DNA from: a virus
Lineage: Duplodnaviria; Heunggongvirae; Uroviricota; Caudoviricetes
DNA length: 13,233 nucleotides
IMG/VR virus record: IMGVR_UViG_2695420747_000007
Location: 1-13,233 of that record
Direction: 5' to 3' (one strand)
Part shown: positions 1-13,233 of the stretch, one piece after another
How positions within the stretch are numbered: position 1 is the stretch's first letter
Layout: the number at the start of each line of letters is the position of its first letter
Notes under the pieces: model-generated
What the model saw: the letters and a program-made list of their open reading frames with translations, nothing else
Database searches by the model: none
What the model was told of the DNA's origin: nothing
Position numbers and translations under genes: made by a program

Positions 1-115
1 CCCGCCACCAGCACACCGTCAGCCAGCACTGACATTATCCGGCTGCTGCAATGCCATTCACAAAAACAGTAAGCAATCACTTTTTACCGTAACAGGTGAT
101 AATCCAGATATGTAT

Positions 116-469
116 CTACCCCAGATGAGTAATCCGAAGTTCATCCATACCACAGGTCCTGGCTATTCTGTTGTACTCCTGAACAAGAGCAAATAATTCT
201 GAATTAGCCACCATGAACTCATCGCAAACCCTCTGTATAGCATCACTATTCAGAATAATAACGTCTCTTCCCGAAAGACGATCAGGAGTACAGAACAAAA
301 CTGTCAAACGGCTGAAGGCCTTTGCTCGTTCTGCATTGACTATATCAATACGCTGCCTAAGGATGAAACACCCCGACGCCTCATCAATATTCACTCTACC
401 CACACCATATGAATGATAAATATTTAATGCTGAAAAAACCATTAGACGGTATAACAAACACTCAATCAA
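116..469 (-). CDS. Hypothetical AT-rich cargo protein (117 aa, copy 1), downstream of the phage tRNAs in the late-transcript direction
   Basis: Open frame in the six-frame track; co-oriented with Q/pR'. Track start at 469 is TTG; first in-frame ATG is at 442; no convincing SD at either. Stop TAG at 116-118. No family recognised. Confidence 0.35.
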   Translation of the reverse strand: MIECLLYRLMVFSALNIYHSYGVGRVNIDEASGCFILRQRIDIVNAERAKAFSRLTVLFCTPDRLSGRDVIILNSDAIQRVCDEFMVANSELFALVQEYNRIARTCGMDELRITHLG

Positions 470-579
470 TACTTAACAGAACTTTTATTTTTGACAAACA
501 TATAATATTTTCAACAAGATCCTGAGCCAGGTATATTTCAGTATAAGGCTCTGCCGGAAGGAATCTGGAAGAATGAATA

Positions 580-656
580 TGGCGCGCTGTACTGGATTCG
601 AACCAGTGACCGATTGCTTAGAAGGCAATTGCTCTGTCCGGCTGAGCTAACAACGC
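580..656 (-). tRNA. tRNA-Arg (anticodon UCU), copy 1
   Basis: Reverse complement folds as a cloverleaf: acceptor GCGTTGT/ACAGCGC, D-stem GCTC/GAGC, anticodon stem ATTGC/GCAAT with loop CTTCTAA, T-stem ACTGG/CCAGT with loop TTCGAAT, encoded CCA. Resembles the argU/argO class from memory. Confidence 0.9.
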
Positions 657-690
657 TGAATACCGATAATGGACCGCCATCGGGGACCCG

Positions 691-706
691 CCCCCCCCCC
701 CCCCCC
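691..706. repeat. C16 homopolymer between the two tRNA genes (C5 in the second copy at about 2350-2354)
   Basis: Read directly: 16 consecutive C here versus 5 at the equivalent position of copy 2. Confidence 0.9.
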
Positions 707-767
707 GCACCAACAACCCTGTTATCGTGTCGTCTGCTCTTCCTGATAAGCTCATGGCGGTTTGTGA

Positions 768-843
768 TGGTGGCCCTTGCTGGATTTGAACCAGCGACCT
801 GGCGATTATGAGTCGCTCGCTCTCACCACTGAGCTAAAGGACC
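768..843 (-). tRNA. tRNA-Ile2 (anticodon CAU, ileX/ileZ-like), copy 1
   Basis: Reverse complement GGTCCTTTAGCTCAGTGGTGAGAGCGAGCGACTCATAATCGCCAGGTCGCTGGTTCAAATCCAGCAAGGGCCACCA: anticodon loop CTCATAA, T-loop TTCAAAT, encoded CCA. Near-identical to my recollection of E. coli ileX; CAU could formally also be Met. Confidence 0.85.
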
Positions 844-882
844 GGGAGCAGAATAATAACGGTCCGTAATTAATTCCGCAAT

Positions 883-904
883 AAAAAACCCGCTCGGTGG
901 CGGG
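883..904 (-). terminator. tR'-like intrinsic terminator, copy 1
   Basis: On the minus strand a GC hairpin (CCCGC-loop-GCGGG, plus 889-904) is followed by a T6 run (plus 883-888), placed after the pR'-like promoter. Confidence 0.65.
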
Positions 905-953
905 TTGTAGAAACTCTTCTAACGTCAGGTATAAAAAGCCCATCGTTATGACG

Positions 954-981
954 AATTTACCACAGATTCCGGAAAAATCAA
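954..981 (-). promoter_or_regulatory. Late promoter pR' with qut/pause region, copy 1
   Basis: Minus strand TTGATT-16-TAAATT followed by CGTCATAACGATGGGC. The TAAATT...AACGATGGG arrangement matches the lambda pR'/pause element as I recall it. Confidence 0.6.
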
Positions 982-986
982 CCTTG

Positions 987-1756
987 TTACCTAGTTACCT
1001 TTTTTAACTGCCGCTCAGCCCATGCTTCTTCAATATCAAACCGGGTCACCAGCGCATCATAGAATTTCTTAACTGTTTTTTCCCATGACGCGCGTGTTAT
1101 CTGGTTTGTCACCTCGCATATAGCATTAAATGCCTCCGTTGATGGTAGTCTTTCATAGCCACGACCACCACAACGCTGGCAGTCTCTGATAACAGGCATA
1201 CCACGTTTTACCGACTCTTCACGGTGAATGGCGACACCACGCCCACGGCAATCCTTACAGACGGTGGAAACCTCACCCTTTCCGCCACACTCCGGACAGG
1301 CAACTTTTACCACCTCCCTGACTTTTTTCCATTCTTCCCAGTAAGACGGATACACACCTTTCGTACACTTTGCCCATACCGGCGGCTTACCATCCGGATA
1401 CTGGACCTTGTTTGTAAAAACTACGCTTTCAATAAATTTTTCCCCATAGCAACAAGGGCACTGCTTTTTACTCGCTGCGCTGCGGGCATAATCCTCAAAA
1501 GCGTACGAAGCCATAATGCGCATCACTACCGGTTTTATTTCTGCCGGAAGTTTTCTCAACGCCGCCACACGATCGCACCGACTGAGTGCATAATCTGCCA
1601 GTAATTCTGTTGCCCGCGCCCTGTCATTCATACTGATGCCCATCTTCCCCAGGAACGCAGAAAACCCCATCTCAGCCCGATTCTGTGTCATGCCCTGCGC
1701 GGCCATCACATCAGTGATACTCAGCGCATCTTTTGACGTTGAGGCCGATGCATCGG
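987..1756 (-). CDS. Q-like late antiterminator, copy 1, 5'-truncated by the N gap
   Basis: Paralogous to the 273-aa ORF at 4175-4996. Multiple CxxC zinc-ribbon motifs (CPCC, CPEC, CKDC, CQRC); sits directly upstream of pR'. The frame runs open from 1709 up to the N run at 1757. Confidence 0.7.
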
Positions 1757-1763
1757 NNNNNNN
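1757..1763. other. Assembly gap (7 N)
   Basis: NNNNNNN in the sequence; flanks match mid-Q on one side and the ORF117 downstream flank on the other. Confidence 0.95.
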
Positions 1764-1784
1764 GGTGATAATCCAGATATGTAT

Positions 1785-2141
1785 CTACCCCAGATGAGTA
1801 ATCCGAAGTTCATCCATACCACAGGTCCTGGCTATTCTGTTGTACTCCTGAACAAGAGCAAATAATTCTGAATTAGCCACCATGAACTCATCGCAAACCC
1901 TCTGTATAGCATCACTATTCAGAATAATAACGTCTCTTCCCGAAAGACGATCAGGAGTACAGAACAAAACTGTCAAACGGCTGAAGGCCTTTGCTCGTTC
2001 TGCATTGACTATATCAATACGCTGCCTAAGGATGAAACACCCCGACGCCTCATCAATATTCACTCTACCCACACCATATGAATGATAAATATTTAATGCT
2101 GAAAAAACCATTAGACCGTATAACAAACACTCAATCAACAC
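1785..2141 (-). CDS. Hypothetical AT-rich cargo protein (copy 2 of the 117-aa ORF)
   Basis: Near-identical to 116-469 (one R/G difference near the N-terminus). Track start at 2141 is GTG. Confidence 0.35.
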   Translation of the reverse strand: MLIECLLYGLMVFSALNIYHSYGVGRVNIDEASGCFILRQRIDIVNAERAKAFSRLTVLFCTPDRLSGRDVIILNSDAIQRVCDEFMVANSELFALVQEYNRIARTCGMDELRITHLG

Positions 2142-2248
2142 TTAACAGAACTTTTATTTTTGACAAACATATAATATTTTCAACAATATCCTGAGCCAGG
2201 TATATTTCAGTATAAGGCTCTGCCGAAAGGAATCTGGAAGAATGAATA

Positions 2249-2325
2249 TGGCGCGCTGTACTGGATTCGAACCAGTGACCGATTGCTTAGAAGGCAATTG
2301 CTCTGTCCGGCTGAGCTAACAACGC
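2249..2325 (-). tRNA. tRNA-Arg (anticodon UCU), copy 2
   Basis: Identical sequence to the tRNA at 580-656. Confidence 0.9.
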
Positions 2326-2425
2326 TGAATACCGATAATGGACCGCCATCGGGGACCCGCCCCCGCACCAACAACCCTGTTATCGTGTCGTCTGCTCTTC
2401 CTGATAAGCTAATGGCGGTTTGTGA

Positions 2426-2501
2426 TGATGGCCCTTGCTGGATTTGAACCAGCGACCTGGCGATTATGAGTCGCTCGCTCTCACCACTGAGCTAAAGGGC
2501 C
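2426..2501 (-). tRNA. tRNA-Ile2 (anticodon CAU), copy 2, variant 3' end
   Basis: Same cloverleaf as 768-843 but the 3' terminus is encoded as TCA instead of CCA (plus tga at 2426-2428) and acceptor position 3 is C instead of T, turning a G-U pair into G-C. Confidence 0.8.
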
Positions 2502-2550
2502 GGAAGCAGAATAATAATGGTGCGTAATTAATTCTGCAATCTCATCCGTT

Positions 2551-3600
2551 TCAAACGATTAAATCCTGAACTTCCCTGACTGTCTGCTCAAAACGTCCGG
2601 TCTCCAGTTCAACGCCAATCGCACGACGCCCGAGCGCCAGTGCAGCTTTTACCGTTGAACCTGAGCCCATAAAAAAATCTGCAACCAGGTCACCCGGACG
2701 ACTGCTTGCGCTGATTATCTGCTGCAGCATTTCTGCCGGTTTTTCGCACGGATGTTTCCCGGGATAGAACTGCACCGGTTTATGTGTCCACACATCCGTG
2801 TACGGCACCTGCGCCGTCACACCAAAATACCGCCGCAGATGCTTATATTCACTCTGCAGCTCCACATACTGCCGGTTCAGTGACGTATACGTATCCACCA
2901 GCTGGTGGTGGGGCTTTTCCAGTTCACCGCGCTGATGTTTCTCTTCTGCCACCCGGGCAAACAGCGACTGTAATTTCAGATAATCGCTTTCGTTCGGTAG
3001 CTGCCACTGACTGGCACTGAACCAGTGCGACACCATGTTTTTCTTTCCTGTGGCATCTGCAATCTGTTTTGCCGTTATCCCCAGGGCCACGCGCGCATCA
3101 CGAAAGTAAGAAATCAGCGGGGCCATCACATGCTGTTTCAGTGCACTGCCCTTCGCCGCATACCCGGCATCTTTCGGACGATACGGCCCCTGATAATGTT
3201 CCGCGAACAGAATGCGCTCTGTGGCGGGGAAATACGCCCGCAGGCTTTCCTTGTTGCATCCGTTCCAGCGTCCGGACGGCTTCGCCCAGATAATATGGTT
3301 CAGCACACTGAAGCGTTCACGCATCATGATTTCGATATCAGATGCCAGGCGATGACCACAGAACAGGTAAAGACTTCCGACAGGTTTCAGCACCCGCCAG
3401 AACTGCGCCAGACACTGGTCCAGCCACTTCAGGTAATCATCGTCGCCCTTCCACTGGTTATCCCAGCCCTCAGGCTTCACTTTAAAGTACGGCGGGTCCG
3501 TGACTATCAAGTCAACAGAATTTTCGGGTAACGACCGGATAAATTCCAGGCAGTCGACGTTGATTAACTCACAACTGGATATTTTTACAGTGTTAAGCAT
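2551..3600 (-). CDS. Orphan DNA methyltransferase, beta-class (N6-adenine or N4-cytosine), 349 aa
   Basis: N-terminal motif IV DPPY (IVTDPPYF) precedes C-terminal motif I FxGxG (DFFMGSGST), the beta-class permutation. ATG at 3600 with weak SD. No adjacent endonuclease gene. Confidence 0.85.
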   Translation of the reverse strand: MLNTVKISSCELINVDCLEFIRSLPENSVDLIVTDPPYFKVKPEGWDNQWKGDDDYLKWLDQCLAQFWRVLKPVGSLYLFCGHRLASDIEIMMRERFSVLNHIIWAKPSGRWNGCNKESLRAYFPATERILFAEHYQGPYRPKDAGYAAKGSALKQHVMAPLISYFRDARVALGITAKQIADATGKKNMVSHWFSASQWQLPNESDYLKLQSLFARVAEEKHQRGELEKPHHQLVDTYTSLNRQYVELQSEYKHLRRYFGVTAQVPYTDVWTHKPVQFYPGKHPCEKPAEMLQQIISASSRPGDLVADFFMGSGSTVKAALALGRRAIGVELETGRFEQTVREVQDLIV

Positions 3601-3692
3601 GGATCATTAAGCCTGTCTCTGATAGGCTCATTCTGCTTTTGCGCAAAGCAGTGGGCCTGAGGTTTGCTTGTGAACCCAACGCATGAGCAGAT

Positions 3693-3723
3693 GGCTGGTG
3701 GGTGCCCCTAACACCCACCAGCC
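3693..3723. promoter_or_regulatory. Perfect 12-bp inverted repeat (GGCTGGTGGGTG-N7-CACCCACCAGCC) in the methyltransferase 5' region
   Basis: Read directly; arms are exact reverse complements and no T-tract follows on either strand, so it is not an intrinsic terminator. A second near-palindrome CTGCTTTTGCGCAAAGCAG lies at about 3632-3650. Confidence 0.4.
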
Positions 3724-3740
3724 GCCCATTTACCACAAAT

Positions 3741-3763
3741 AAAAAAGCCTTCACTGCGGAAGG
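3741..3763 (-). terminator. Intrinsic terminator after the small wHTH ORF
   Basis: Minus-strand hairpin GCCTTC-loop-GAAGGC (plus 3747-3763) followed by T6 (plus 3741-3746); overlaps the stop codon of the upstream ORF. Confidence 0.5.
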
Positions 3764-3948
3764 CGTCTGTAACAACCGAACTGATAGTCTGCCAGACCCG
3801 CCATAACCAGCTGGGTCAGTATTAACTGGCAGCGTTCGCGTGAAAGGTAAGTATTCTGCGCTATCTCCCCGACTGTCGCCGGTTCGGTAACGCTTAATTC
3901 ATTAAACACCACTCTGGCGGTTTCTGTCATATCCTGCTGTTTTAGCAT
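3751..3948 (-). CDS. Small putative winged-helix protein (65 aa)
   Basis: ATG at 3948 with SD-like AAGGGA 7 nt upstream; the track's longer ORF extends this upstream. Sequence MLKQQDMTETARVVFNELSVTEPATVGEIAQNTYLSRERCQLILTQLVMAGLADYQ looks like a small wHTH/FeoC-like fold. Inference only. Confidence 0.5.
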   Translation of the reverse strand: MLKQQDMTETARVVFNELSVTEPATVGEIAQNTYLSRERCQLILTQLVMAGLADYQFGCYRRLPQ

Positions 3949-4070
3949 GTCTTTTTCCCTTTTCCGGTTAACGTGACACACCAATAACTCTTGTCGAAAA
4001 AGCCAGCAAGCTGAAAGACAGGTATTCACCGCCACCAGCGCGTTTACTGTACTGACGCGATTTCAGTCAT

Positions 4071-4092
4071 AAAAAACCCGCCAGGTGGCGGG
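4071..4092 (-). terminator. tR'-like intrinsic terminator, copy 2
   Basis: Minus-strand hairpin CCCGCC-ACCT-GGCGGG (plus 4077-4092) followed by T6 (plus 4071-4076). Confidence 0.7.
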
Positions 4093-4141
4093 GTGTAAAA
4101 AATCTTCTAACGTCAGGCATAAAACGCCCATCGTTAGAGCA

Positions 4142-4169
4142 AATTTACCACAGATTCGGGAAAAATCAA
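4142..4169 (-). promoter_or_regulatory. Late promoter pR' with qut/pause region, copy 2
   Basis: Minus strand TTGATT (plus 4164-4169), 16-nt spacer, TAAATT (plus 4142-4147), then TGCTCTAACGATGGGCG; lies just downstream of the Q stop codon. Confidence 0.65.
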
Positions 4170-4174
4170 CAACA

Positions 4175-4996
4175 CTATCGCGTTACCCTCTTTAACTGCC
4201 GCTCCGCCCATGCCTCTTCAATGTCAAACCGAACCACCAACGTATCGTAAAAGCGTTTCACTGATTTTTTCCACGTATCAAGCGTGATAGCACTCGTCAC
4301 TTTGCATATGGCATTAAATGCCTCCGTTGATGGCAGCCTTTCACAGCCACGACCACCACAACGCTGGCAATCTCTGATAACAGGCATACCACGTTTTACC
4401 GACTCTTCACGATGAATGGCGACACCACGCCCACGGCAATCCTTACAGGCGGTGGAAACCTCACCCTTTCCGCCACACTCCGGACAGGCAACTTTTACCA
4501 CCTCCCTGACTTTTTTCCATTCTTCCCAGTAAGACGGATACACGCCTTTTGTGCACTTTGCCCACACTGGTGGCTTACCATCCGGATACTGGATCTTGTT
4601 TGTAAAAACCTCGCTTTCAATAAATTTTTTTCCGTGACAGCAGGGGCACTGTTTTTTGCTCGCCGCGCTACGGGCATAATCTTCAAACGCATACGAAGCC
4701 ATAATGCGCATCACTACCGGTTTTATTTCTGCCGGAAGTTTTCTCAACGCCGCCACACGATCGCACCGACTGAGTGCATAATCTGCCAGTAATTCTGTTG
4801 CCCGCGCCCTGTCATTCATACTGATGCCCATCTTCCCCAGGAACGCAGAAAACCCCATCTCAGCCCGATTCTGTGTCATGCCCTGCGCGGCCATCACATC
4901 AGTGATACTCAGCGCATCTTTTGACGTTGAGGCCGATGCATCGGTCAGGCCAGGGGATTTTGGGGAGTAGTATTTCGGTAAATCTTCCAGTTTCAT
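4175..4996 (-). CDS. Q-like late antiterminator (273 aa), zinc-ribbon type
   Basis: ATG at 4996 overlaps the rusA stop (ATGA). Four CxxC pairs. Position immediately upstream of the lambda-like pR'. Resembles the QuuQ/YdfT class from memory. Confidence 0.8.
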   Translation of the reverse strand: MKLEDLPKYYSPKSPGLTDASASTSKDALSITDVMAAQGMTQNRAEMGFSAFLGKMGISMNDRARATELLADYALSRCDRVAALRKLPAEIKPVVMRIMASYAFEDYARSAASKKQCPCCHGKKFIESEVFTNKIQYPDGKPPVWAKCTKGVYPSYWEEWKKVREVVKVACPECGGKGEVSTACKDCRGRGVAIHREESVKRGMPVIRDCQRCGGRGCERLPSTEAFNAICKVTSAITLDTWKKSVKRFYDTLVVRFDIEEAWAERQLKRVTR

Positions 4997-5367
4997 TTTT
5001 TGACCTGCTCTTCATGCATTATGGGGTAAATCTTCACCCCCATACGTCCACCAGATACTGGCTGACCACGAACGATATTGATTTCATCAAACTGCTCATC
5101 GTCCATTAACACTCCCGCATGCGTCAGCGCATCCAGCGGTGCTTTCAGGATATTGTCCAGGTCGCGACGACGCTTATCCGGTGGCTCTGCAATCACCTTT
5201 ATCGCCAGCCTTCCGGACAGGCTTAATTTCAGCCGCTGCTGGCGAACAATAAGCGCCACAGCACGGCGATAACGCTTTCCCTCCTCCGAGATAAAATATG
5301 TGCTGCCACGGCGTCGCCAGTAAGTGTTCACCGTCGGCGGGTAAGGTAAAACCAAATCTATGAGCAT
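4993..5367 (-). CDS. rusA: Holliday-junction resolvase RusA
   Basis: 124 aa; conserved RusA-like segment PPDKRRRDLDNILKAPLDALTHAGVLMDDEQ; ATG at 5367 with SD AGAGGTGA. Confidence 0.9.
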   Translation of the reverse strand: MLIDLVLPYPPTVNTYWRRRGSTYFISEEGKRYRRAVALIVRQQRLKLSLSGRLAIKVIAEPPDKRRRDLDNILKAPLDALTHAGVLMDDEQFDEINIVRGQPVSGGRMGVKIYPIMHEEQVKK

Positions 5368-5379
5368 CAGTCACCTCTT

Positions 5380-6429
5380 TTACCCAAGCACGCCAGTTGC
5401 AAAGGCGTGATCAAGAAAACGAAAAATTAAATCAACCTGAGAACCATGCTTTTCTTCGAACGCCAGCGGATCCGCATGAAGCTCGTTGTGATGCTCCCGA
5501 CACAGCGGTAGCGTGAAAATATCGTGAGATTTTGTCCCCATTCCGCCCTGACCATGACCAATCAGGTGATGGGGATCGTCGGCTGGCTTACCACAACACG
5601 CACACGGCTGTGTCTTCACCCAGCGTGTGTATTTCTCGTTAACCCAGCGGCGACGTTTAGGTCGTTTCATGAAAGATTCCGGAGACTCAGGATCAACGGC
5701 AATGCTGACCACCGTCTTTTCCTGTGGTGGGTTCTGTTGCTGGTGGGCGTGAGGCAGCGGCGCAAGATTTTTTGTGCGCTGTTTCAGTATGCTGGTGGCG
5801 GTCTGCTCTCCCGGTACGATGTCGCTTTCACGGTACATTGAGCGGATTTTTTCCGCACGCAACCCCAGCGAACGACGTAATACCGCTTCCGGTAGCGCGT
5901 CCGCCAGCTGATTGCGGACCGCCCACCAGGATAATTCAGCCAGAGATAATTCACGCTCCTGCGTACCGCTTATTGCGTGACCGATGACGTCAATCATCCA
6001 TGCTGACAGGTTTTGATGAGCAAGTTGCTCGAGTGATTCGGATGTCTGGTCACGCAGCTGGTTGTCGCAGTGCCAGCACAACACCATTGCGCCGGTACCA
6101 TATCGGTGAATAACGGTTTCGCTGTGATGATAATCGCCGTGTGGCCACTGGCAGGATTTAATATGGCGCAACAGCCAGTCAGACAATGCACCAGCACCAC
6201 CAGCAGCACGAATTACCCGTGCGTTACTGAAAAACGGCAGCAATGTTTTGTCTTCCACCAGCGGCTGGCGAACGGCAGGAACGACCCCGGACGGCATATT
6301 ACGCATGCTTTTCGGTTCCGGCTCCACCAGTACCCGGGTATTGTGGAATACCGGCATGGATTCACGGCCCGGCTTAACGACCACCAGCCCGAGTTCCGGT
6401 ACCAGAACAGGTCGAAGTAATACCCGCAC
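5380..6429 (-). CDS. YdfU-like DUF968 protein with C-terminal Cys/His (HNH-like) motif
   Basis: 349 aa; GTG start at 6429 with GGAGG 4 nt upstream; C-terminal CACCGKPADDPHHLIGHG...CREHHNELH; adjacent to Q as ydfU is to quuQ in the Qin prophage (recalled synteny). Confidence 0.7.
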   Translation of the reverse strand: MRVLLRPVLVPELGLVVVKPGRESMPVFHNTRVLVEPEPKSMRNMPSGVVPAVRQPLVEDKTLLPFFSNARVIRAAGGAGALSDWLLRHIKSCQWPHGDYHHSETVIHRYGTGAMVLCWHCDNQLRDQTSESLEQLAHQNLSAWMIDVIGHAISGTQERELSLAELSWWAVRNQLADALPEAVLRRSLGLRAEKIRSMYRESDIVPGEQTATSILKQRTKNLAPLPHAHQQQNPPQEKTVVSIAVDPESPESFMKRPKRRRWVNEKYTRWVKTQPCACCGKPADDPHHLIGHGQGGMGTKSHDIFTLPLCREHHNELHADPLAFEEKHGSQVDLIFRFLDHAFATGVLG

Positions 6430-6430
6430 G

Positions 6431-6709
6431 TTACCTCCAGATGCGTTGCTGGAATGTACGGGACGGACGCGGTGGGCGTTCGGAGTAAGGCAATCTGACT
6501 GAGATTATCCAGTGACGGTAGTCGAGGCTAAGGGCTTTTTTAACCTCGTATCCGCGCCTGCGGTAACACTGAATTATCCATTCAGCCTGCTCTTCAGTGC
6601 ATGGTGGATGCTGGAACCAGTCCGATTTGAATGCATGAAAACGCCGTCCGCACCTGCTGGCAAAGACGGCAGAATCATCAGAATTGTGTAATTTGGTATC
6701 GTGCGCCAT
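6431..6709 (-). CDS. Hypothetical nin-region protein (92 aa from the ATG at 6709; the track ORF extends to a TTG at 6820)
   Basis: Open frame whose stop (TAA 6431-6433) sits 1 nt before the GTG of the downstream gene. Start uncertain, no clear SD. Occupies the position of rem in Qin but identity is not established. Confidence 0.4.
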   Translation of the reverse strand: MAHDTKLHNSDDSAVFASRCGRRFHAFKSDWFQHPPCTEEQAEWIIQCYRRRGYEVKKALSLDYRHWIISVRLPYSERPPRPSRTFQQRIWR

Positions 6710-7070
6710 CGGTTGTCTCTGCTGGCGCAGCAGGTGCCAGTTGTTCAGGCTGGCGTATAAAGTATAAATAAACTGGTTCCAGTGTAAAGCCCCTACATTA
6801 ATGGAATAAAAGTCAAACAACAGATTGTTGGGATAAACACAACGCTTATTATTAAAAGCGATTAGATAAATTAAATTTTAATGTTATGCAATTTTACCAG
6901 ATCACCATAACATCTCGTTTGAAACCACCGAAACAACAACCATATCAATATTGATTATGTTAAAGTGAGTAAATATGGAAAACAACAAATCTGCACATTA
7001 CGCTCCTTTTTTATCTGTGATACTTTTTGTTTTATGCTGTGTGTGGGCATTATTTTTATAAAAATATTTA

Positions 7071-7097
7071 CAGATAAAATAAACCCGCCGAAGCGGG
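7071..7097 (-). terminator. hok mRNA 3' terminator / fold-back region
   Basis: Minus-strand hairpin CCCGC-TTCG-GCGGG (plus 7084-7097) followed by a T-rich run. The 3' segment CCTCAACGCACCC (plus about 7105-7117) is complementary to the predicted hok mRNA 5' end GGGTGCTTGAGG. Confidence 0.55.
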
Positions 7098-7167
7098 TTA
7101 AGCGCGGGTGCGTTGAGGATGCCTGACACATCAGAGGCGGCGAGGGATTTCTCCCTCGCCAAGTCTC

Positions 7168-7323
7168 TTACTCCTCAGGTTCGTAGACTGTGAAGACAGC
7201 GACCTCCATCTGGCCGGTTCGGATTCGTACCTCGCAGAGGTCTTTCCTCGTTACCAGTGCCGTCACTATGACGGTTAAACAGATGACGATCAGGGCGATT
7301 AACATCGCCTTTTGCTGCTTCAT
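7168..7323 (-). CDS. hok: Hok-family type I toxin (51 aa)
   Basis: MKQQKAMLIALIVICLTVIVTALVTRKDLCEVRIRTGQMEVAVFTVYEPEE, near-identical to HokD/RelF as recalled. SD AAGGAG 9 nt upstream. An in-frame upstream ATG at 7380 gives a 70-codon mok-like frame. Confidence 0.9.
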   Translation of the reverse strand: MKQQKAMLIALIVICLTVIVTALVTRKDLCEVRIRTGQMEVAVFTVYEPEE

Positions 7324-7336
7324 AGCCTGCTTCTCC

Positions 7337-7365
7337 TTGCCTTTCGGCACGTAAGAGGCTAACCT
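7337..7365 (+). promoter_or_regulatory. sok: sok antisense promoter
   Basis: Plus strand TTGCCT-17-TAACCT, colinear with the plasmid R1 sok promoter (TTGCGC-17-TATCCT) as I recall it; lies inside the mok-like leader, antisense to hok. Confidence 0.5.
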
Positions 7366-7371
7366 AGATTT

Positions 7372-7445
7372 GCCGTTCATAGATTGAGCCTCAGATTAAT
7401 GTTAAGCGTCTTGCAGGACGCGTAATGTTAACTGGGGCTTTTCTC
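7372..7445 (+). ncRNA. sok: Sok-like antisense RNA (approximate extent)
   Basis: Inferred from the promoter above and the usual Sok length of about 65 nt; the 3' end is not defined by a clean terminator. Confidence 0.35.
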
Positions 7446-7498
7446 TATCTGCCTTTGGTGTTCATGCCTGAGGCAGATAGCCTCAAGCACCCGCAGTC

Positions 7499-7526
7499 AT
7501 TCTACTTAACTAAGATTTCCCCGCAA
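7499..7526 (-). promoter_or_regulatory. hok/mok promoter
   Basis: Minus strand TTGCGG-16-TAGAAT; the predicted 5' end GGGTGCTTGAGGCTATCTGCCTCAGG resembles the R1 hok mRNA 5' end as recalled. Confidence 0.5.
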
Positions 7527-7581
7527 ACCGTTTTTGTCCAGCACAATAAATATCCAACTAAACCAATGGAGTTCGCTGTAT

Positions 7582-7761
7582 TTACCGCCAGTATTCAATG
7601 CACATGACCGCCATGAACACCCCTAAAAAAAGGGCATTTATATATCCAAATATTAATATCAAAACATCAACTTTTTCCATATACCTTGCTGTGAAGATGA
7701 TGGGCATACATGATACGAACAACCAGAACGCAACAAACAAAAACTGCAATGCGTTTTTCAT
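7582..7761 (-). CDS. Small hydrophobic two-helix membrane protein (59 aa)
   Basis: ATG at 7761 preceded by AGGAGG (4-nt spacer); MKNALQFLFVAFWLFVSCMPIIFTARYMEKVDVLILIFGYINALFLGVFMAVMCIEYWR. The track ORF extends to a GTG at 7800. Confidence 0.5.
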   Translation of the reverse strand: MKNALQFLFVAFWLFVSCMPIIFTARYMEKVDVLILIFGYINALFLGVFMAVMCIEYWR

Positions 7762-8192
7762 TATTCCTCCTACAATCAATGTGCAATTACATTTAAACAC
7801 ACCTCAATTTGGCCGGACATATAAATATCTAAACTAGAAAAAATCACTTACATAGCGTTACAAACTCTTTAGTCTAAAGGTTCATCGTAAAACACTCCCC
7901 ATACTTATCAGTCCGTTCCGCGCCAGGTAGCTTATTGCCTTATCTGGCAACCTATAATCAGGTTTCCGCTTTTTCAGTTGGCTGGTCGTTTAACCGACAT
8001 AGTTAACCCATTAATCTAGTTGCCGGATGTTGGTGGATTTTCGCGTTTTAGTTGTTCATAAAAGTGCACAGCTTTAACCAGTTCTTCTGATGTAACCAGG
8101 GCTGGTGAGGCAGTGAATAAGGCCTGAATTTGATAGTTCGGCCTGTCGTTACAATCCTCTTTTTTCGGTACATATTTCCAGTCAACAGACCA

Positions 8193-8303
8193 CTACTTCT
8201 CCTGAAAGTCCGTAACGCCTTTTTTCACGTAGCGATATCGCCATGCCACTGGTTTTGCTTGCTCCGCCGTTTCATACCCTTCCTGATAATTAATCTCGCT
8301 CAT
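8193..8303 (-). CDS. Small ORF (36 aa) ending in TAG, with 58 further in-frame sense codons down to 8016
   Basis: ATG at 8303 overlaps the upstream stop (ATGA). After the TAG at 8193-8195 the frame continues protein-like (…PALVTSEELVKAVHFYEQLKRENPPTSGN) with no start codon of its own. Confidence 0.4.
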   Translation of the reverse strand: MSEINYQEGYETAEQAKPVAWRYRYVKKGVTDFQEK

Positions 8304-8476
8304 TCATCGCCCCACTCATCACAATATGCTTCGACCGGATTTTTTCCTGCTTCATAATCATCACGCCATGCTTCAGCATCAGCAGCACTGCCACCACGTA
8401 ACTCTGCATAGTCCATTAACAGTTCATGCCATTTTTCAAAACTGACGTTGTATTTAGTTGAACCAAAATCAGCCAT
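8300..8476 (-). CDS. Small protein (58 aa), translationally coupled
   Basis: Not in the track (under 60 aa). ATG at 8476 with purine-rich SD GAGGAA; overlaps the upstream stop (ATGGCTGA) and the downstream start (ATGA). MADFGSTKYNVSFEKWHELLMDYAELRGGSAADAEAWRDDYEAGKNPVEAYCDEWGDE. Confidence 0.5.
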   Translation of the reverse strand: MADFGSTKYNVSFEKWHELLMDYAELRGGSAADAEAWRDDYEAGKNPVEAYCDEWGDE

Positions 8477-8651
8477 TTTGCTCTTCCTCTTCGTCTTTTA
8501 TTTCGTGATATGAGTAATTGCAGTAGTTAAAGAAAATATCTTTTGCTTCGTCATGTATTTCATCAGGCGTCGCATCAGCATCCACTTCGAATTCATCCTC
8601 GAAATCTCCACCAGCCATTCCCGTTTCAATAATTATTTTGAACTTTCGCAT
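8469..8651 (-). CDS. Small highly acidic protein (60 aa)
   Basis: ATG at 8651; Asp/Glu-rich (…GDFEDEFEVDADATPDEIHDEAKD…KDEEEEQNG); first gene of a coupled three-gene set. Confidence 0.45.
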   Translation of the reverse strand: MRKFKIIIETGMAGGDFEDEFEVDADATPDEIHDEAKDIFFNYCNYSYHEIKDEEEEQNG

Positions 8652-8744
8652 TTCACTACCGCCCTTTCGGGTGGCCTCCTGCTGTTCTGAGGGTGCAGAA
8701 ATCCCTCCGGTTAAGGATTAAATTTTTAACAGTGCTAAATTTAA

Positions 8745-9101
8745 TTATTCAGTTTTGGATTTTGTCACCCTGCGTATCCACGCTTTCCCGTTACGCTCAA
8801 TCTGAATTAGCTTTTCTATATTTTTTCGCCTTTCCCGTTCCTCCTGGCGCAAGAGCCTTACATCATCTGCCAGTCTGGTTTCTCTTTTCGCCACAGAGAG
8901 CATCCAGTCAAATGGCTCCACAACTGCACCGCAGATTTTACAGCGGACCTGACGCTCTTTTTCGTCAACCCGGACAGAAGCGTGATGGCAATATGGTCTT
9001 TCCGATGGCTCATAAAGAAAATTAACCTGATTACGAGGGTCATCCTCTTTTATCGGAAATAAAACGATATTGCTTAACTAATCCTCTGGTTTTATTTCCA
9101 T
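8745..9101 (-). pseudogene. ORF interrupted by an in-frame TAG at codon 8 (about 118 codons total); Cys/His-containing protein
   Basis: ATG at 9101 with SD AAGGAG 6 nt upstream; codons ATG GAA ATA AAA CCA GAG GAT TAG, then 110 open in-frame codons (…ERPYCHHASVRVDEKERQVRCKICGAVVEPFDWM…) to TAA at 8745-8747. No alternative start between the TAG and the Cys motif. Confidence 0.4.
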
Positions 9102-9158
9102 GCTCCTCTCCTTTGATGCGAATGCCAGCGGCAATTGAAGCCTGATAGCTAATTTCAC

Positions 9159-9581
9159 TCACAGTACCGCCTCCTGAAAATTACCCTGATAGAAAGCCAG
9201 TACACGCTGCATAGCTTCGCTCTTCCGGCACTCGCGACAGATTATATTCAGGCGCCTGTCGTAGCGGCGTATTTCTCCGTCTGGTAATGACCAGATTAGG
9301 TCCGGATCAACCGCAGATGGTTTCTTCGGCTTTGCCCTTGAGAGCTTTTTACGGGCATTTTGCCAGTCCTTACGCGCCTGTTCAGACGGGAATAACCCGT
9401 AACCAGAGTTGTATACATCGCCACTGGCAACCAGCTCTCTGGCCAGAACACTCATCAGATATCTTGTTGCCCCAGTTTTAGTTTCCAGTTGTCGTAACGT
9501 CTCGCGCCCACTTTGGCGTACGAGTTCAACAACCTGCCCTTTAATTTTTTCCCGCTCTTCTTGTGTAAAAACTTTTGCCAC
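9159..9581 (-). CDS. Hypothetical replication-module protein (140 aa)
   Basis: GTG start at 9581 with AGGAGG upstream; follows the O-like gene. No family recognised. Confidence 0.6.
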   Translation of the reverse strand: MAKVFTQEEREKIKGQVVELVRQSGRETLRQLETKTGATRYLMSVLARELVASGDVYNSGYGLFPSEQARKDWQNARKKLSRAKPKKPSAVDPDLIWSLPDGEIRRYDRRLNIICRECRKSEAMQRVLAFYQGNFQEAVL

Positions 9582-9621
9582 AAGCCCTCCTGAAAATTAC
9601 CTCATGACCAGAAATTAACAC

Positions 9622-10692
9622 TTACCCCCTGAAGCCCGGCGGAATTTCGTTATCCGGTTCAGAAATATGATTCACACAACGCTGGTTGTTCGTGCCGCTT
9701 ACCGGGAGCAACCAGGGGTTCTCAAAATTCCGGTCCGGTCCAAAAAACGTCGTCGCTCGCTGAACAAATTCCGTTCCCGTTTTCCCGGTAGCCGCCAAGT
9801 ATCTTGCGTAACGCCTCACGCCATCCAGCATGGCCTCTGGTGGCACCCCCTCGCGTAATCTGGCCTTCCAGGCACTGAAAGCGGATTTCTTCGGGTTTGC
9901 TCCGGCACGCAACGGGTACTCCCGCCAGACCTGTTCGAACACATCCGGATAATCCACTCGTCCCACAGACTGCCCGGTGTTTTCCGGGACTACCCGATCG
10001 GCTTCCCGCTGAATGGCGGAATCGGCTTCGGGCTGCTGCAGTTGGTGTGATTGCTCCGGCCTTGCGGTCATCACCTGCTGCACAGCGCCCGAATCGGCTT
10101 TCAGCGCATACGCTGAATCGGCTTCCGGTGTCGTGCCTGCTGGCTGACCAAGATTGACGGTCTGAACATCCCCTGCCTGGTTCGTGGCGTTTTTTACGCC
10201 ATGGACCATAGTGTTTTGATCTTCTTGATCTGTATCTTTATCTGTATCTTTATCTGTCGTGACTCGTCGTGACATATGCGTGACATTTCGTGACGCGCCG
10301 TGACAATCGCCATTTTGTTCCCGCTTTCTTTCCCTCTCTCGCTGCGCCCTCTTGCGCTCTGCAGGAGATTTTGCGGTTTGCGAAATATTGCCGTTGTCCT
10401 CTTTAAGCACCTGGCGTTTTTCCCATCCAGTGATTAAATCACCATCAAGTACCCGCCCCTGCATCGTCTGCAAAATTGAATCAATTACCTCTTCTGTCAC
10501 GTCGAGCGCACTTGCCAAATCTTCTGTCGTGACCTCAATGTGACCTCGCGTGACATTTCGTGACGCGCTCACCAGGAGGTGGATATACACTGCCATCACT
10601 GTTGCAATTGGCTGCCCTGACACCCTGGCAATTGTTCGCCACTTAGGGTCATTTGGCATGTCATGCCATAATCTGAGCCAGGCGTTAGCCAT
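9622..10692 (-). CDS. Phage replication initiation protein, O-like (replisome organizer), 356 aa
   Basis: ATG at 10692 with SD GAGGTG (the track starts 2 codons earlier at a GTG). Position after cro-like/YdaT-like genes. N-terminus MANAWLRLWHDMPNDPKWRTIARVSG… resembles replisome-organizer N-domains. Contains the phased repeats listed below. Confidence 0.65.
   Translation of the reverse strand: MANAWLRLWHDMPNDPKWRTIARVSGQPIATVMAVYIHLLVSASRNVTRGHIEVTTEDLASALDVTEEVIDSILQTMQGRVLDGDLITGWEKRQVLKEDNGNISQTAKSPAERKRAQRERERKREQNGDCHGASRNVTHMSRRVTTDKDTDKDTDQEDQNTMVHGVKNATNQAGDVQTVNLGQPAGTTPEADSAYALKADSGAVQQVMTARPEQSHQLQQPEADSAIQREADRVVPENTGQSVGRVDYPDVFEQVWREYPLRAGANPKKSAFSAWKARLREGVPPEAMLDGVRRYARYLAATGKTGTEFVQRATTFFGPDRNFENPWLLPVSGTNNQRCVNHISEPDNEIPPGFRG
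10258..10304. repeat. Iteron-like array 1: five CGTGAC repeats at 10-11 bp phasing, next to an AT-rich GATC-containing stretch (10211-10257)
   Basis: CGTGAC at 10258, 10268, 10279, 10289, 10299. Upstream is the direct repeat ATCTGTATCTTT x2 and two GATC sites. Confidence 0.5.
10496..10564. repeat. Iteron-like array 2: CGTGAC/TGTGAC repeats at 10-11 bp phasing plus one inverted copy
   Basis: Copies at 10528, 10539, 10549, 10559 and inverted GTCACG at 10496. The 21-mer GCGTGACATTTCGTGACGCGC is identical in both arrays (10279-10299 and 10549-10569). Confidence 0.5.
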
Positions 10693-10763
10693 ACTCACCT
10701 CTTTTGATACCGAATCTTTTTACTCACAAATTGCCGGAAGCGATCCGGTATGAATATTGCGAG

Positions 10764-11189
10764 TCAATGCACAGCCACAATATTTCCTGCAGGGCCACCA
10801 CGATTCATCTGGTTGAAACCAGCGATCGCCACTGCGACAAAATCATCAGCGTCTCTCACCAGTCGTTCCCGCGTCTCCACTAGTTCCCGAAAATAGGCTG
10901 AGCTATGACTGCGCATTCGGGCCACCAGCAGAGGTGGCATTGCTTTTTCGATAGCTGGTAACAACGCCTGAATTTTTTTAACCGCATCAGGGGTGTCTTT
11001 CTCCACCCAGCGGAAAATTTTCTGAGTATTGCGAGCCAGGGCTTCCGGATGGCTGTCGTCATACAGTTCCGGGAACGTCATTCCCAGCTCGAAATACGCT
11101 TTGGTAATTTTCGCAGCCGGTACTTTTTCGCCGTCCGGATGCGCCCAGGCATTCATCGCCATGCGGATGTGTTCATGCTTGATTTTCAT
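10764..11189 (-). CDS. YdaT-like protein (141 aa)
   Basis: ATG at 11189 overlaps the cro-like stop (ATGA); SD GGGAG. N-terminus MKIKHEHI matches my recollection of Rac YdaT; position equals cII/ydaT in lambdoid maps. Confidence 0.5.
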   Translation of the reverse strand: MKIKHEHIRMAMNAWAHPDGEKVPAAKITKAYFELGMTFPELYDDSHPEALARNTQKIFRWVEKDTPDAVKKIQALLPAIEKAMPPLLVARMRSHSSAYFRELVETRERLVRDADDFVAVAIAGFNQMNRGGPAGNIVAVH

Positions 11190-11440
11190 GAATCAACTCC
11201 CATCAGCTTTTTCGTAGTAGTTTTATTCCTGCCAATAGTTAAAATTGCATCGGCAGAAAATAATCCGTTTGATGCAAGAGCGATTTTTTCAGCGTAATTT
11301 GTTTCGCCGGTATATTCTGTGCGAGGCAATTTTCCGTTATCCATCCATTTATAGATTGCTCTTTGGCTGACACCACAAACGTCGGCCACAACAGCAACGC
11401 GAACAGTTTTGATTACATCTTCAAGTGTTTTCTGGTTCAT
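11186..11440 (-). CDS. Cro-like / YdaS-like HTH regulator (84 aa)
   Basis: ATG at 11440 with SD GAGGGTGA (the track ORF extends upstream to a non-ATG start). HTH-like segment VADVCGVSQRAIYKWMDNGKLP; divergent from the repressor gene. Confidence 0.65.
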   Translation of the reverse strand: MNQKTLEDVIKTVRVAVVADVCGVSQRAIYKWMDNGKLPRTEYTGETNYAEKIALASNGLFSADAILTIGRNKTTTKKLMGVDS

Positions 11441-11456
11441 ATCACCCTCACAATGT

Positions 11457-11512
11457 GAACTTTGAGTACATGCTATAACAGAACTGACAGTACATTCAAG
11501 AGCGAATATCAT
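11457..11512. promoter_or_regulatory. OR-like divergent promoter/operator region
   Basis: Two 15-bp direct repeats, GAACTTTGAGTACAT (11457-11471) and GAACTGACAGTACAT (11481-11495). Plus-strand CTGACA-17-TATCAT ends 7 nt before the repressor ATG (leaderless-type). Minus-strand TTGAAT...TATAGC for the cro-like gene. Confidence 0.5.
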
Positions 11513-11519
11513 TGAACTT

Positions 11520-11939
11520 ATGGTTCATGAAGATAAAGCGCGTAAAGAGTTCGCCAGTAGGCTTGCGCTAGCCTGTGAAAACGCTGGTTATGAACAACAT
11601 GGAAGGCAGGCAGAAATTGCCCGTCGAATGAAATTAACACCAAAAGCGGTTAGCAAATGGTTTAATGGCGAAACAATTCCTCGCCGGGAGAAATTAAGGG
11701 AATTAGCAACACTAATAGGAACAACACCAACCTATCTTTTGGGAGAGGATACAGAAGAAAGTGGACAGGTACGTTTCTATCAGGAGTTAAATCCAAGACA
11801 AAAAATCATCATTGACCTTCTGGACGAGCTCCCTGACAGTGAGACAGATGAACTTTTAAAAACTCTTGAAGAGAAAAAACAGAAGTACAATGCAATTTAC
11901 GAAGAGTTAGCACGAAAGAAAAAACAAAAAGCCTCTTAA
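11520..11939 (+). CDS. DicA-family prophage repressor (139 aa, XRE-type HTH, no peptidase domain)
   Basis: HTH segment MKLTPKAVSKWFNGETIPRREKLRELATLIGTTPTYLLG; C-terminal helical tail. No SD before the ATG. Architecture matches DicA/RacR-type repressors as recalled. Confidence 0.75.
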   Translation: MVHEDKARKEFASRLALACENAGYEQHGRQAEIARRMKLTPKAVSKWFNGETIPRREKLRELATLIGTTPTYLLGEDTEESGQVRFYQELNPRQKIIIDLLDELPDSETDELLKTLEEKKQKYNAIYEELARKKKQKAS

Positions 11940-12014
11940 ACCAGCATAAATCCGGTAGCGCCTTCCTCCGGGTTTGTGCTTCACTTTATCCCATCTCATT
12001 TTTTTACACACAAA

Positions 12015-12059
12015 ATGTACTAAATGTACTTTACAACAATGAACACAAAGTACATTATA
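12015..12059 (+). promoter_or_regulatory. OL-like operator/promoter region downstream of the repressor gene
   Basis: ATGTACT at 12015 and 12024 and inverted AGTACAT at 12049, the same heptamer as in OR; candidate promoter TTTACA-(17-18)-ATTATA reading rightward. Confidence 0.4.
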
Positions 12060-12236
12060 TACCTGCCACCCACCCCGCCCCACAGAATGCAGGGCAATAC
12101 TTCGAGTTACCAGGCAGTGGTCAGGGGTTAAGTAGCCAGCCCGAGGCGTAAGAACATGACGGCAGGGTTCAACTTTAATAACTATGCAGCAGGTTTTTGT
12201 TCCGCTACCCCGGCGTTAAGGGGAAATGAGGTCAGC

Positions 12237-12392
12237 ATGGATACTATCAATCTTGGCAACAGCGAATCTCTGGTATGTGGCGTGTTCCCCAACCAGGACG
12301 GTACGTTCACCGCAATGACGTATACCAAAAGCAAAACGTTTAAAACCGAAAATGGTGCCCGTCGCTGGCTGGAAAGAAACTCAGGTGAGTGA
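12237..12392 (+). CDS. YdfA-like small protein (51 aa)
   Basis: ATG at 12237 with GAGG 5 nt upstream; MDTINLGNSESLVCGVFPNQDGTFTAMTYTKSKTFKTENGARRWLERNSGE; resembles Qin YdfA from memory. The track ORF starts at an upstream ATG (12156). Confidence 0.55.
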   Translation: MDTINLGNSESLVCGVFPNQDGTFTAMTYTKSKTFKTENGARRWLERNSGE

Positions 12393-12393
12393 T

Positions 12394-12969
12394 ATGGATT
12401 TCGACACAATCATGGAAAAGGCTTACGAAGAATACTTCGAAGGCCTTGCCGAAGGCGAAGAAGCTCTCAGCTTCAGTGAGTTTAAACAGGCACTCAGAAT
12501 AAGAATGTGCTCTCACAATGACGCGGAGCACAAATATGAGAAGCAAAATCAGACCGCAGAAAATTTTGTTCTGGAACCCGGAGAAACGCTTTTCAAAATT
12601 CCCGTTACGTGCCCCATTTGCGGTTTTACATCAGAAGAACTTGACGACTCCTGTAACAATCAGGAAACAACCAAGTATGTCGAAGATGATACCGAGTGCG
12701 CACGAAGAACGATTATATCCACGAGTCCAAACTCCAGGGCCAATAAATCTCACTTTGAGAGGGTGATTAATCCACTCCCCCAAACCAATAAAAAAGATGC
12801 CGGAGGACAAAAAACCCAATGGAACAACGGGATATCTGTCAAAAAAAGACGTTCCATTAAAGACAAACAACGCAGCGCCAACAACTGTAAGCGCTTTATA
12901 CCAGTAATCAATTTTCATGTTCTTAAGCGGATTTATTGGTGGTTGCGACATTGCTTAATGAATCCTTAA
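12394..12969 (+). CDS. Hypothetical early-left operon protein (191 aa), CPICGF motif; C-terminal part low-complexity
   Basis: ATG at 12394 is 1 nt after the YdfA-like stop, with SD AGGTGAG. The N-terminal part is protein-like; the last 60 or so codons are A-rich and basic and may be fortuitous. Confidence 0.4.
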   Translation: MDFDTIMEKAYEEYFEGLAEGEEALSFSEFKQALRIRMCSHNDAEHKYEKQNQTAENFVLEPGETLFKIPVTCPICGFTSEELDDSCNNQETTKYVEDDTECARRTIISTSPNSRANKSHFERVINPLPQTNKKDAGGQKTQWNNGISVKKRRSIKDKQRSANNCKRFIPVINFHVLKRIYWWLRHCLMNP

Positions 12970-13233
12970 AACTGTGGTGATTTTAAGGATACCACCTCGC
13001 CTGACGTGGTTAAAAGCAGGCACACAACACGAAAGCGCACGGCGAAGTTCGTCTCACTGTACGGTGTCGTTAAATTTAATTCGACCGTGCGCTTCCGGTT
13101 GTGGCAACCCGCAAAATGGCGCGGCGGTAAGTATGGCGGGGTTATTCCTTCCCCGTTGAGGACACCGGGTTGTCAGGTTGACCATACGCTTAAGTGACAA
13201 CCCCGCTGCAACGCCCTCTGTTATCAATTTTCT

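Follow-up and report, generated by a model that had tools for sequence, protein, structure and literature searches.

The interrupted genes and their setting

The window, the whole stretch of 13,233 nucleotides that was analyzed (positions 1 to 13,233 of IMG/VR record IMGVR_UViG_2695420747_000007), is part of a lambdoid E. coli prophage. On its minus strand it carries two small genes, here called C and D, which are interrupted by in-frame TAG (amber) codons. The features of this region are as follows.

7974-8303, minus strand: gene C, originally 109 codons, phrog_660 family, a pseudogene with ambers at codons 37 and 96
8016-8018, minus strand: second amber of C, codon 96, which is CAG (Gln) in relatives
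8193-8195, minus strand: first amber of C, codon 37, a hypervariable codon in intact relatives
8220-8225, minus strand: A6 homopolymer in C, lengthened to A7 or A8, with a frameshift, in many copies with the first amber
8745-9101, minus strand: gene D, 118 codons from ATG 9101 to TAA 8745, phrog_1621 family, a nonsense pseudogene here
8931-8990, minus strand: zinc-ribbon motif of D (Cys-His-His ... Cys-x-x-Cys), a weak Pfam match
9040-9162, minus strand: overlapping ORF of 40 codons in another frame than D, a hypothetical protein in PGAP and a by-product of the D mutation
9078-9080, minus strand: amber of D, codon 8, from GAG (Glu) by G-to-T at 9080

At least 16 complete E. coli genomes, sequenced independently of one another, contain the 1401 bases from 7900 to 9300 with 100% identity; they came from pigs, river water, birds and patients and from various laboratories and platforms, and the stops are therefore not base-call errors. 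A further strain, ATCC 43886, is 99.9% identical and has the D amber. One of these genomes, strain 53, carries the prophage in ydfJ, the Qin attachment site. Its prophage begins with integrase, excisionase, exonuclease, dicB and ydfA, continues through a Rac-like immunity and replication region (YdaS/YdaT-like proteins, an O-like protein, DUF977) to the C/D region, goes on with hokD/sok, DUF968, RusA, the Q antiterminator, lysis genes and an IS2, and ends with terminase, portal, capsid, tail and tail-fibre genes; essD and rrrQ are present as well. Because this gene content extends from the integrase to the tail fibres, the element in strain 53 is a nearly full-length mosaic prophage of the Qin/Rac type. 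As small accessory genes, C and D occupy the interval between the replication genes and Q, the equivalent of the lambda nin region. Outside the studied stretch, collinearity between the window and strain 53 was incomplete, and the best whole-window matches reached 88% coverage. An Rfam search over the window returned only sok and four tRNAs, with nothing in 8016-9101, and a literature search found nothing specific to genes C or D.

Translation of 8745-9101 on the minus strand (MEIKPED*LSNIV...KSKTE*) agreed with an earlier, sequence-only reading of this DNA, which had described gene D as having an amber at codon 8 and 110 sense codons behind it. That reading was also correct that no ATG, GTG or TTG stands between the amber and the Cys/His motif: the first such codon is the GTG at 8921, past the first half of the motif. 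An alternative in-frame GTG start for D lies upstream, at 9156-9158. For gene C, translation of 8016-8303 on the minus strand gave 36 codons, the TAG at 8193-8195, 58 sense codons and another TAG at 8016-8018. The first TAG and the 58 codons behind it are thus as previously described, but the gene had been taken to be interrupted once and to end at 8016, and this part has to be revised, as 8016-8018 is a second premature TAG.

Homology across the amber codons

It had been argued that open frames of this length behind a stop are very unlikely to arise by chance. When we made mononucleotide shuffles of the window as a control, each shuffled window held approximately 5 runs that stayed open for 110 codons or more and approximately 67 that did so for 58 or more. 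The argument is therefore weaker than claimed; on its own, ORF length is a hint in the case of D and carries no information for C, and we dropped it as a test of chance.

What gives the TAGs a meaning is homology across them, which we regard as the decisive evidence. Read-through proteins of both genes have homologs that span the stop, the check that the sequence-only reading had proposed. With the TAG read as Glu, D matched phrog_1621 from end to end (residues 1-117 on profile positions 1-120 of 134; E=2.1e-53). The read-through of C matched phrog_660 (residues 2-93 on profile positions 34-118 of 193; E=1.5e-25), a family related to the C-terminal module of Ead/Ea22-like proteins, and the match spans the first amber. 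Both HMM matches thus run across the amber positions, but the members of the two families are intact ORFs whereas the window copies are interrupted.

Gene D

The D protein (TAG read as Glu) matched approximately 100 database relatives, and we examined the codon that stands at the amber position in the DNA. Phage vB_EcoS-640R1 has GAG at this position. Among 80 IMG/VR loci encoding D relatives, 73 had GAG and were intact, and 6 had TAG. In 5426 complete E. coli genomes, we also searched for the two forms with sequences of 55 bases that have the variant base in the middle, so that this base falls inside every possible 28-base megablast seed. The GAG form was found at 1707 places in 1418 genomes and the TAG form at 93 places in 91 genomes, the amber accounting for approximately 5% of copies; it was absent from all 50,697 isolated-phage records. 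These counts show GAG to be the ancestral codon and TAG a derived, minority form. Glu8 was invariant, and the surrounding EDELSN motif (E-[DKN]-E-L-S-N) was kept in homologs down to 48% identity, so the amber lies inside a conserved coding region and not in a mis-called leader.

Nonsense alleles produced by prophage decay had been the leading explanation from the sequence alone, and the sense codons found in the DNA of relatives at each of the sites bear this out. The route then proposed, a transition from CAG or TGG, does not apply to gene D; since the relatives have GAG, the mutation is a G-to-T transversion.

Copies with the amber also differed from intact copies in how they had changed. 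Intact D haplotypes differed from one another by approximately 20 synonymous and 3 nonsynonymous changes. The TAG lineage, compared with the nearest intact haplotype, showed E8*, V17I, A105G and R116K and no synonymous change; V17I, A105G and R116K were common to all amber copies, and sub-lineages had acquired in addition either R108W (the copy in the window) or E118V. The contrast of 0 synonymous and 5 nonsynonymous or nonsense changes with 20 and 3 in intact copies gave p=6e-4 in a Fisher test, on small counts (5 versus 23). The amber allele was therefore found as a derived form in one lineage with linked substitutions. Some strains of this lineage carry an IS5 directly after the TAG, flanked by a TTAA duplication (gat-TAG-TTAA|IS5|TTAA-gc), and an IS1 was found in the 3' end of the gene (P0030; strain PI7). 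Taken together, the pattern is the signature of a gene that has been out of use since the amber arose.

The intact gene is predicted to encode a zinc-ribbon plus long-helix protein. The Pfam family Zn_Ribbon_TF matched D weakly (E=1.6e-4, below the gathering score), and C38, H40, C54 and C57 were invariant among homologs. For the intact homolog P0006, AlphaFold2 gave a model of moderate quality (pLDDT 69.5), with a disordered N terminus of 30 residues, a small zinc ribbon on C38/H40/C54/C57, beta-hairpins and one long helix (residues 63-117). A Foldseek search of the PDB with this model found nothing significant, the best match being the TFIIB zinc ribbon (E=0.45), and NCBIfam and PADLOC searches with D gave no match. 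In other prophages, the D module is fused to the N-terminal parts of Ead/Ea22 or DUF977 proteins.

Gene C

For gene C, we surveyed 120 IMG/VR loci among the matches listed by scanning with a degenerate pattern; the sample is arbitrary and not ranked by similarity. Codon 37 was highly variable among these 120 matches listed (CCG 41, TAG 39, CAG 17, TTG 11, ATG 8, CTG 2 and TGG 2), being a sense codon in 81 of them, and a TCG can be inferred from the Ser in P0117. TAG is one step away from CAG, TTG or TGG, which leaves the immediate ancestor of the first amber ambiguous. All 39 amber copies among the matches listed share the flanks WS.DWKYVPKKEDC...SEELVKAVHFYEQLK and are closest to the TTG clade; we take this shared context to suggest a single origin. 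The first amber was also found on more than one C-terminal mosaic (L085), and it is widespread rather than private to the genome of the window. Its presence in about one-third of the copies among the matches listed, on more than one mosaic, is readable as maintenance and not drift.

The original extent of the gene was given by L084, a member of the TTG clade, which has CAG at the site of the second amber and continues QINGLTMPVKRPAD to a TGA corresponding to window positions 7974-7976; the original C was therefore 109 codons long (8303-7974). PGAP already annotates 7882-8303 as a pseudogene ('frameshifted; internal stop'). We considered a frameshift near 7975, which the PGAP extension to 7882 would imply, as a third lesion. 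This was rejected because P0137, L084 and the TTG clade, all of them intact relatives, terminate with the same TGA (...QINGLTM[SP]VKRPA[ND]*), making this end a legitimate shorter C-terminal variant.

Further damage was concentrated in copies that carry the first amber. An upstream frameshift, caused by lengthening of the A6 run to A7 or A8 or by a different indel, was present in 24 of the 39 TAG copies versus 2 of the 81 sense copies among the matches listed (p=5e-13). Again among the matches listed, 22 of the 39 first-amber copies had the second TAG, and 14 of the 39 had a 47-bp deletion that creates the new ending ...LITDSQIRQ. One copy, L087, combines A8 with a compensating extra base and reads across the TAG out of frame. 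Judged by these nested lesions, gene C is an old pseudogene that has been passed on widely and damaged again in several successive rounds. At such divergence, the 58-codon open stretch behind its first amber is unremarkable.

Interpretation of the amber alleles

We conclude that genes C and D are very probably loss-of-function pseudogene alleles of small accessory genes in a Qin/Rac-like lambdoid E. coli prophage. The comparisons of DNA establish the ancestral sense codons, the derived minority status of the D amber, the relaxed constraint and the secondary lesions. Gene D would have been lost recently, by the G-to-T change that made a TAG of codon 8, the GAG of an invariant Glu; translation would stop after 7 residues when started at ATG 9101 and after 26 when started at the alternative GTG, and the long open frame past the stop would be the still-undecayed remainder of the gene. 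Gene C would have been lost much earlier, with the first amber at codon 37 as the initial event, and its descendants would then have acquired the second amber (CAG to TAG at codon 96, as in the window copy), poly-A slippage to A7 or A8, and the 47-bp deletion. Translation of the amber alleles presumably ends at the TAGs, apart from possible read-through or reinitiation at a low level, so that no functional protein is expected from them. Such decay could be tolerated because these are early lytic-operon genes that would be silent in the lysogen and are likely to be dispensable.

An alternative that we consider unlikely is that selection favoured the null alleles, for example because the product is harmful to the lysogen or is a target of host defence. 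The first amber of C does occur in 39 of 120 copies among the matches listed and on several mosaic backgrounds, and many C copies have additional knock-out lesions. However, the extra lesions are nested in one TAG clade (WS.., PKKEDC, SEELVKAVHFYEQLK) and are not independent primary knock-outs, and how often an allele appears in sequence collections depends on the clonal way in which E. coli lineages have been sampled. Most C copies among the matches listed are intact and intact D alleles are strongly biased toward synonymous change, which also argues against a benefit of loss, as does L087, which regained its frame by a compensating insertion.

Gene D might still yield a functional, N-terminally shortened protein by reinitiation or from an alternative start after the amber, and we view this as quite improbable. 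PGAP does annotate a 107-aa CDS (WP_234975314.1) for the rest of D, starting at ATC 9066-9068; the zinc ribbon and the helix lie intact downstream of that ATC, and disorder is predicted for the first 30 residues. However, E. coli initiates very poorly at ATC, and the nearest GAGG is 14 bases upstream, too far to serve as a Shine-Dalgarno site; the first ATG, GTG or TTG in frame is not reached until codon 61. A protein started at the ATC would lack the E-[DKN]-E-L-S-N motif including the invariant Glu8, and the TAG lineage shows nonsynonymous change only, together with IS insertions.

A still less probable reading holds that the C amber is maintained and forms, with the poly-A run, a conditional switch operating via leaky read-through or A-run slippage. 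The first amber lies 24 bases downstream of this run, whose length varies (A6, A7 or A8).

We give even less credence to the possibility that full-length proteins arise because the TAGs are read as sense codons, whether through an amber suppressor tRNA of the host or the phage or through programmed read-through. It would account for the three premature stops all being TAG with open frames behind them, and some automated gene callers did place Gln at the TAGs (P0104 and P0105, treated below as artefacts because their contigs carry TAG). The window, though, encodes two Arg-TCT and two Met-CAT tRNAs, and none of these four has a CUA anticodon. Of the possible suppressor genes, which also include tyrT, serU and leuX, the search for a suppressor allele covered glnV, with a 55-base query that has the supE44 change at its centre. 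A supE-type glnV allele was found in 158 genomes, and the 60 of these that were listed were all K-12 laboratory lineages (among them C600, DH5alpha, DH1 and J53); the known supE44 strains C600 and DH5alpha, which served as the positive control, were among the matches listed. There was no overlap between these 60 listed carriers and the 60 listed D-amber hosts (of 91). The amber-suppressor host that had been proposed from the sequence alone thus finds no counterpart in the window tRNAs or in the listed glnV alleles. The base after each of the three TAGs is T or A, an efficient termination context in E. coli. The pattern of decay provides an independent argument against decoding: instead of a conserved TAG with purifying selection downstream, we found nonsynonymous changes, frameshifts, deletions and IS insertions, and the frameshifts, IS insertions and relaxed constraint pile up specifically in the TAG lineages.

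Finally, sequencing or assembly errors in one record can practically be dismissed, since at least 16 complete genomes, produced in different laboratories and on different platforms, have the identical stretch, the D amber and its context are present in 91 genomes, and the same amber is seen in IMG/VR, Logan and ENA contigs.

Relation to known systems

The cryptic or defective lambdoid prophages Qin, Rac and DLP12 are the same type of element, and the strain 53 copy also sits at the Qin site. Like these prophages, the element studied here has lost accessory genes by nonsense mutations, homopolymer frameshifts, deletions and IS insertions. The K-12 Qin is heavily deleted, whereas the strain 53 prophage is nearly full length, with one IS2 and decay in small accessory genes only. 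A general picture of prophage degradation was reportedly drawn by Bobay, Touchon and Rocha in 2014, and the decay of C and D is consistent with it. We regard the two genes as a textbook case of accessory-gene decay in a resident prophage, with little biological weight; they are of some practical use for annotation.

Two other groups of phages resemble these alleles at first sight. Laboratory ambers of lambda, such as Sam7, Oam29 and Pam80, likewise consist of one in-frame TAG that interrupts a gene of a lambdoid phage and leaves the rest of the frame intact. They affect essential genes, were obtained by selection on suppressor hosts and occur only in laboratory stocks, whereas the alleles described here are in probably dispensable genes of natural isolates with no supE-type allele among the listed hosts. 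The suggestion that C and D carry deliberate amber alleles does not fit carriers isolated from pigs, birds, rivers and patients. In stop-codon-recoded phages (such as some crAss-like phages and Lak phages), TAG encodes Gln, many TAGs occur in late genes, and a suppressor tRNA is usually present. The likeness is in the in-frame TAGs in phage ORFs, which pipelines translate as Gln (compare P0104 and P0105); the difference is that here three TAGs are confined to two decaying accessory genes, in a window without a suppressor tRNA and in an E. coli host that uses the standard code.

Consequences for annotation

The mutation in gene D has left traces in the databases. The G-to-T change also alters the overlapping frame, where a TGA stop (GGA TGA) becomes TTA and an ORF of 27 codons, whose GTG start overlaps the DUF977 stop, is thereby extended to the 40 codons of 9040-9162. 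The 27-codon form belongs to phrog_19884, and the 40-aa form belongs to phrog_37408. We regard both this 40-codon ORF and the 107-aa ATC-start CDS as annotation artefacts, the latter because its ATC has no usable Shine-Dalgarno site and the conserved N-terminal motif is missing. One G-to-T change has thus given rise to two spurious database entries, one of them with its own PHROG family.

A second kind of artefact concerns gene C. The best database matches to C, P0104 (95% identical) and P0105, seemed to be intact C alleles with Gln at the amber position. Both were rejected, as their source contigs (L083 and L085) carry TAG and the contig DNA does not translate to the listed protein; these Gln residues are artefacts of gene callers that used a TAG-as-Gln code on short contigs. 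Large metagenome-derived protein collections hold such "intact" homologs with Gln at an amber, and since these entries come from an alternative code, matches that span a stop need to be checked against the underlying DNA.

Apparent read-through homologs and allelic variation of gene C

The first amber position of gene C is read as Gln in the database sequences of two metagenome-derived homologs, P0104 and P0105, and the second amber is also given as Gln in P0104, whose underlying cluster holds 160 member sequences. The two proteins lie on the following contigs:

L083, positions 310-639: P0104, gene C homolog
L085, positions 874-1233: P0105, gene C homolog

We checked the contig DNA and found TAG present in both sources. 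Evidently, a TAG-as-sense code was applied by gene callers to short E. coli prophage contigs, giving P0104 and P0105.

In intact alleles, the codon of the first gene C amber (8193-8195; homologous codon in loci L088-L207) is hypervariable, encoding Pro, Gln, Leu, Met, Trp, or Ser, and it is surrounded by well-conserved flanks (FQ[EG]K-x-W.[GV]DWKY). The gene C poly-A run (window 8220-8225) also varies, being A6, A7, or A8 depending on the prophage copy. In one genome (locus L087, 1001-1318; protein P0120), an A8 run occurs together with an additional T located 3' of the TAG, so the frame is restored and 12 codons, the TAG among them, are read out of frame.

ORFs and insertions at the gene D amber

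Two PGAP-annotated ORFs flank or overlap the amber codon of gene D and owe their existence entirely to one G-to-T change, at 9080:

9040-9162, minus strand: 40-aa ORF WP_001345625.1
8745-9068, minus strand: 107-aa CDS WP_234975314.1, with an ATC start

The 40-aa ORF has been given a separate PHROG family, phrog_37408. In other strains, the gene D amber codon is directly followed by IS5 with a TTAA target duplication, and the insertion produces a chimeric ORF, P0001:

L210, 270-300 and 1470-1490 (corresponding to roughly 9071-9080 in the window): IS5 insertion after the amber

In E. coli strain PI7, IS1 breaks the 3' end of gene D (P0030).

Domain fusions of the gene C and gene D modules

Domain shuffling in the gene C/D region is illustrated by fusions of both modules. 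In other prophages, Ead/Ea22-like or DUF977 N-terminal parts are joined to the gene D module, a zinc ribbon plus helix (P0002, P0005, P0007, P0039, and P0042), and the gene C module is also found behind Ea22-like N-termini (P0137, P0153, and P0218).

Other features of the window

A type I toxin–antitoxin locus was identified from an Rfam sok match (7318-7492; 111.7 bits) and from the identical sequence of E. coli strain 53, in which hokD is annotated:

7168-7492, minus strand: hokD/sok locus

No more than 88% of the window is covered by its best E. coli matches. The window contains a repeated module of roughly 0.8 kb:

95-882: tRNA module, first copy
1764-2540: tRNA module, second copy

Each copy, about 1.66 kb apart, carries tRNA-Arg(TCT) and tRNA-Met(CAT), the latter possibly an Ile-lysidine tRNA. 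Two stretches are repeated between the modules without gaps, one of 300 nt with 100% identity and the other of 185 nt with 96%, and window 874-1173 is 79% similar to 4062-4361, the 3' part of the gene for the Q antiterminator. These sequence similarities suggest that the Q-tRNA region has been duplicated or recombined.
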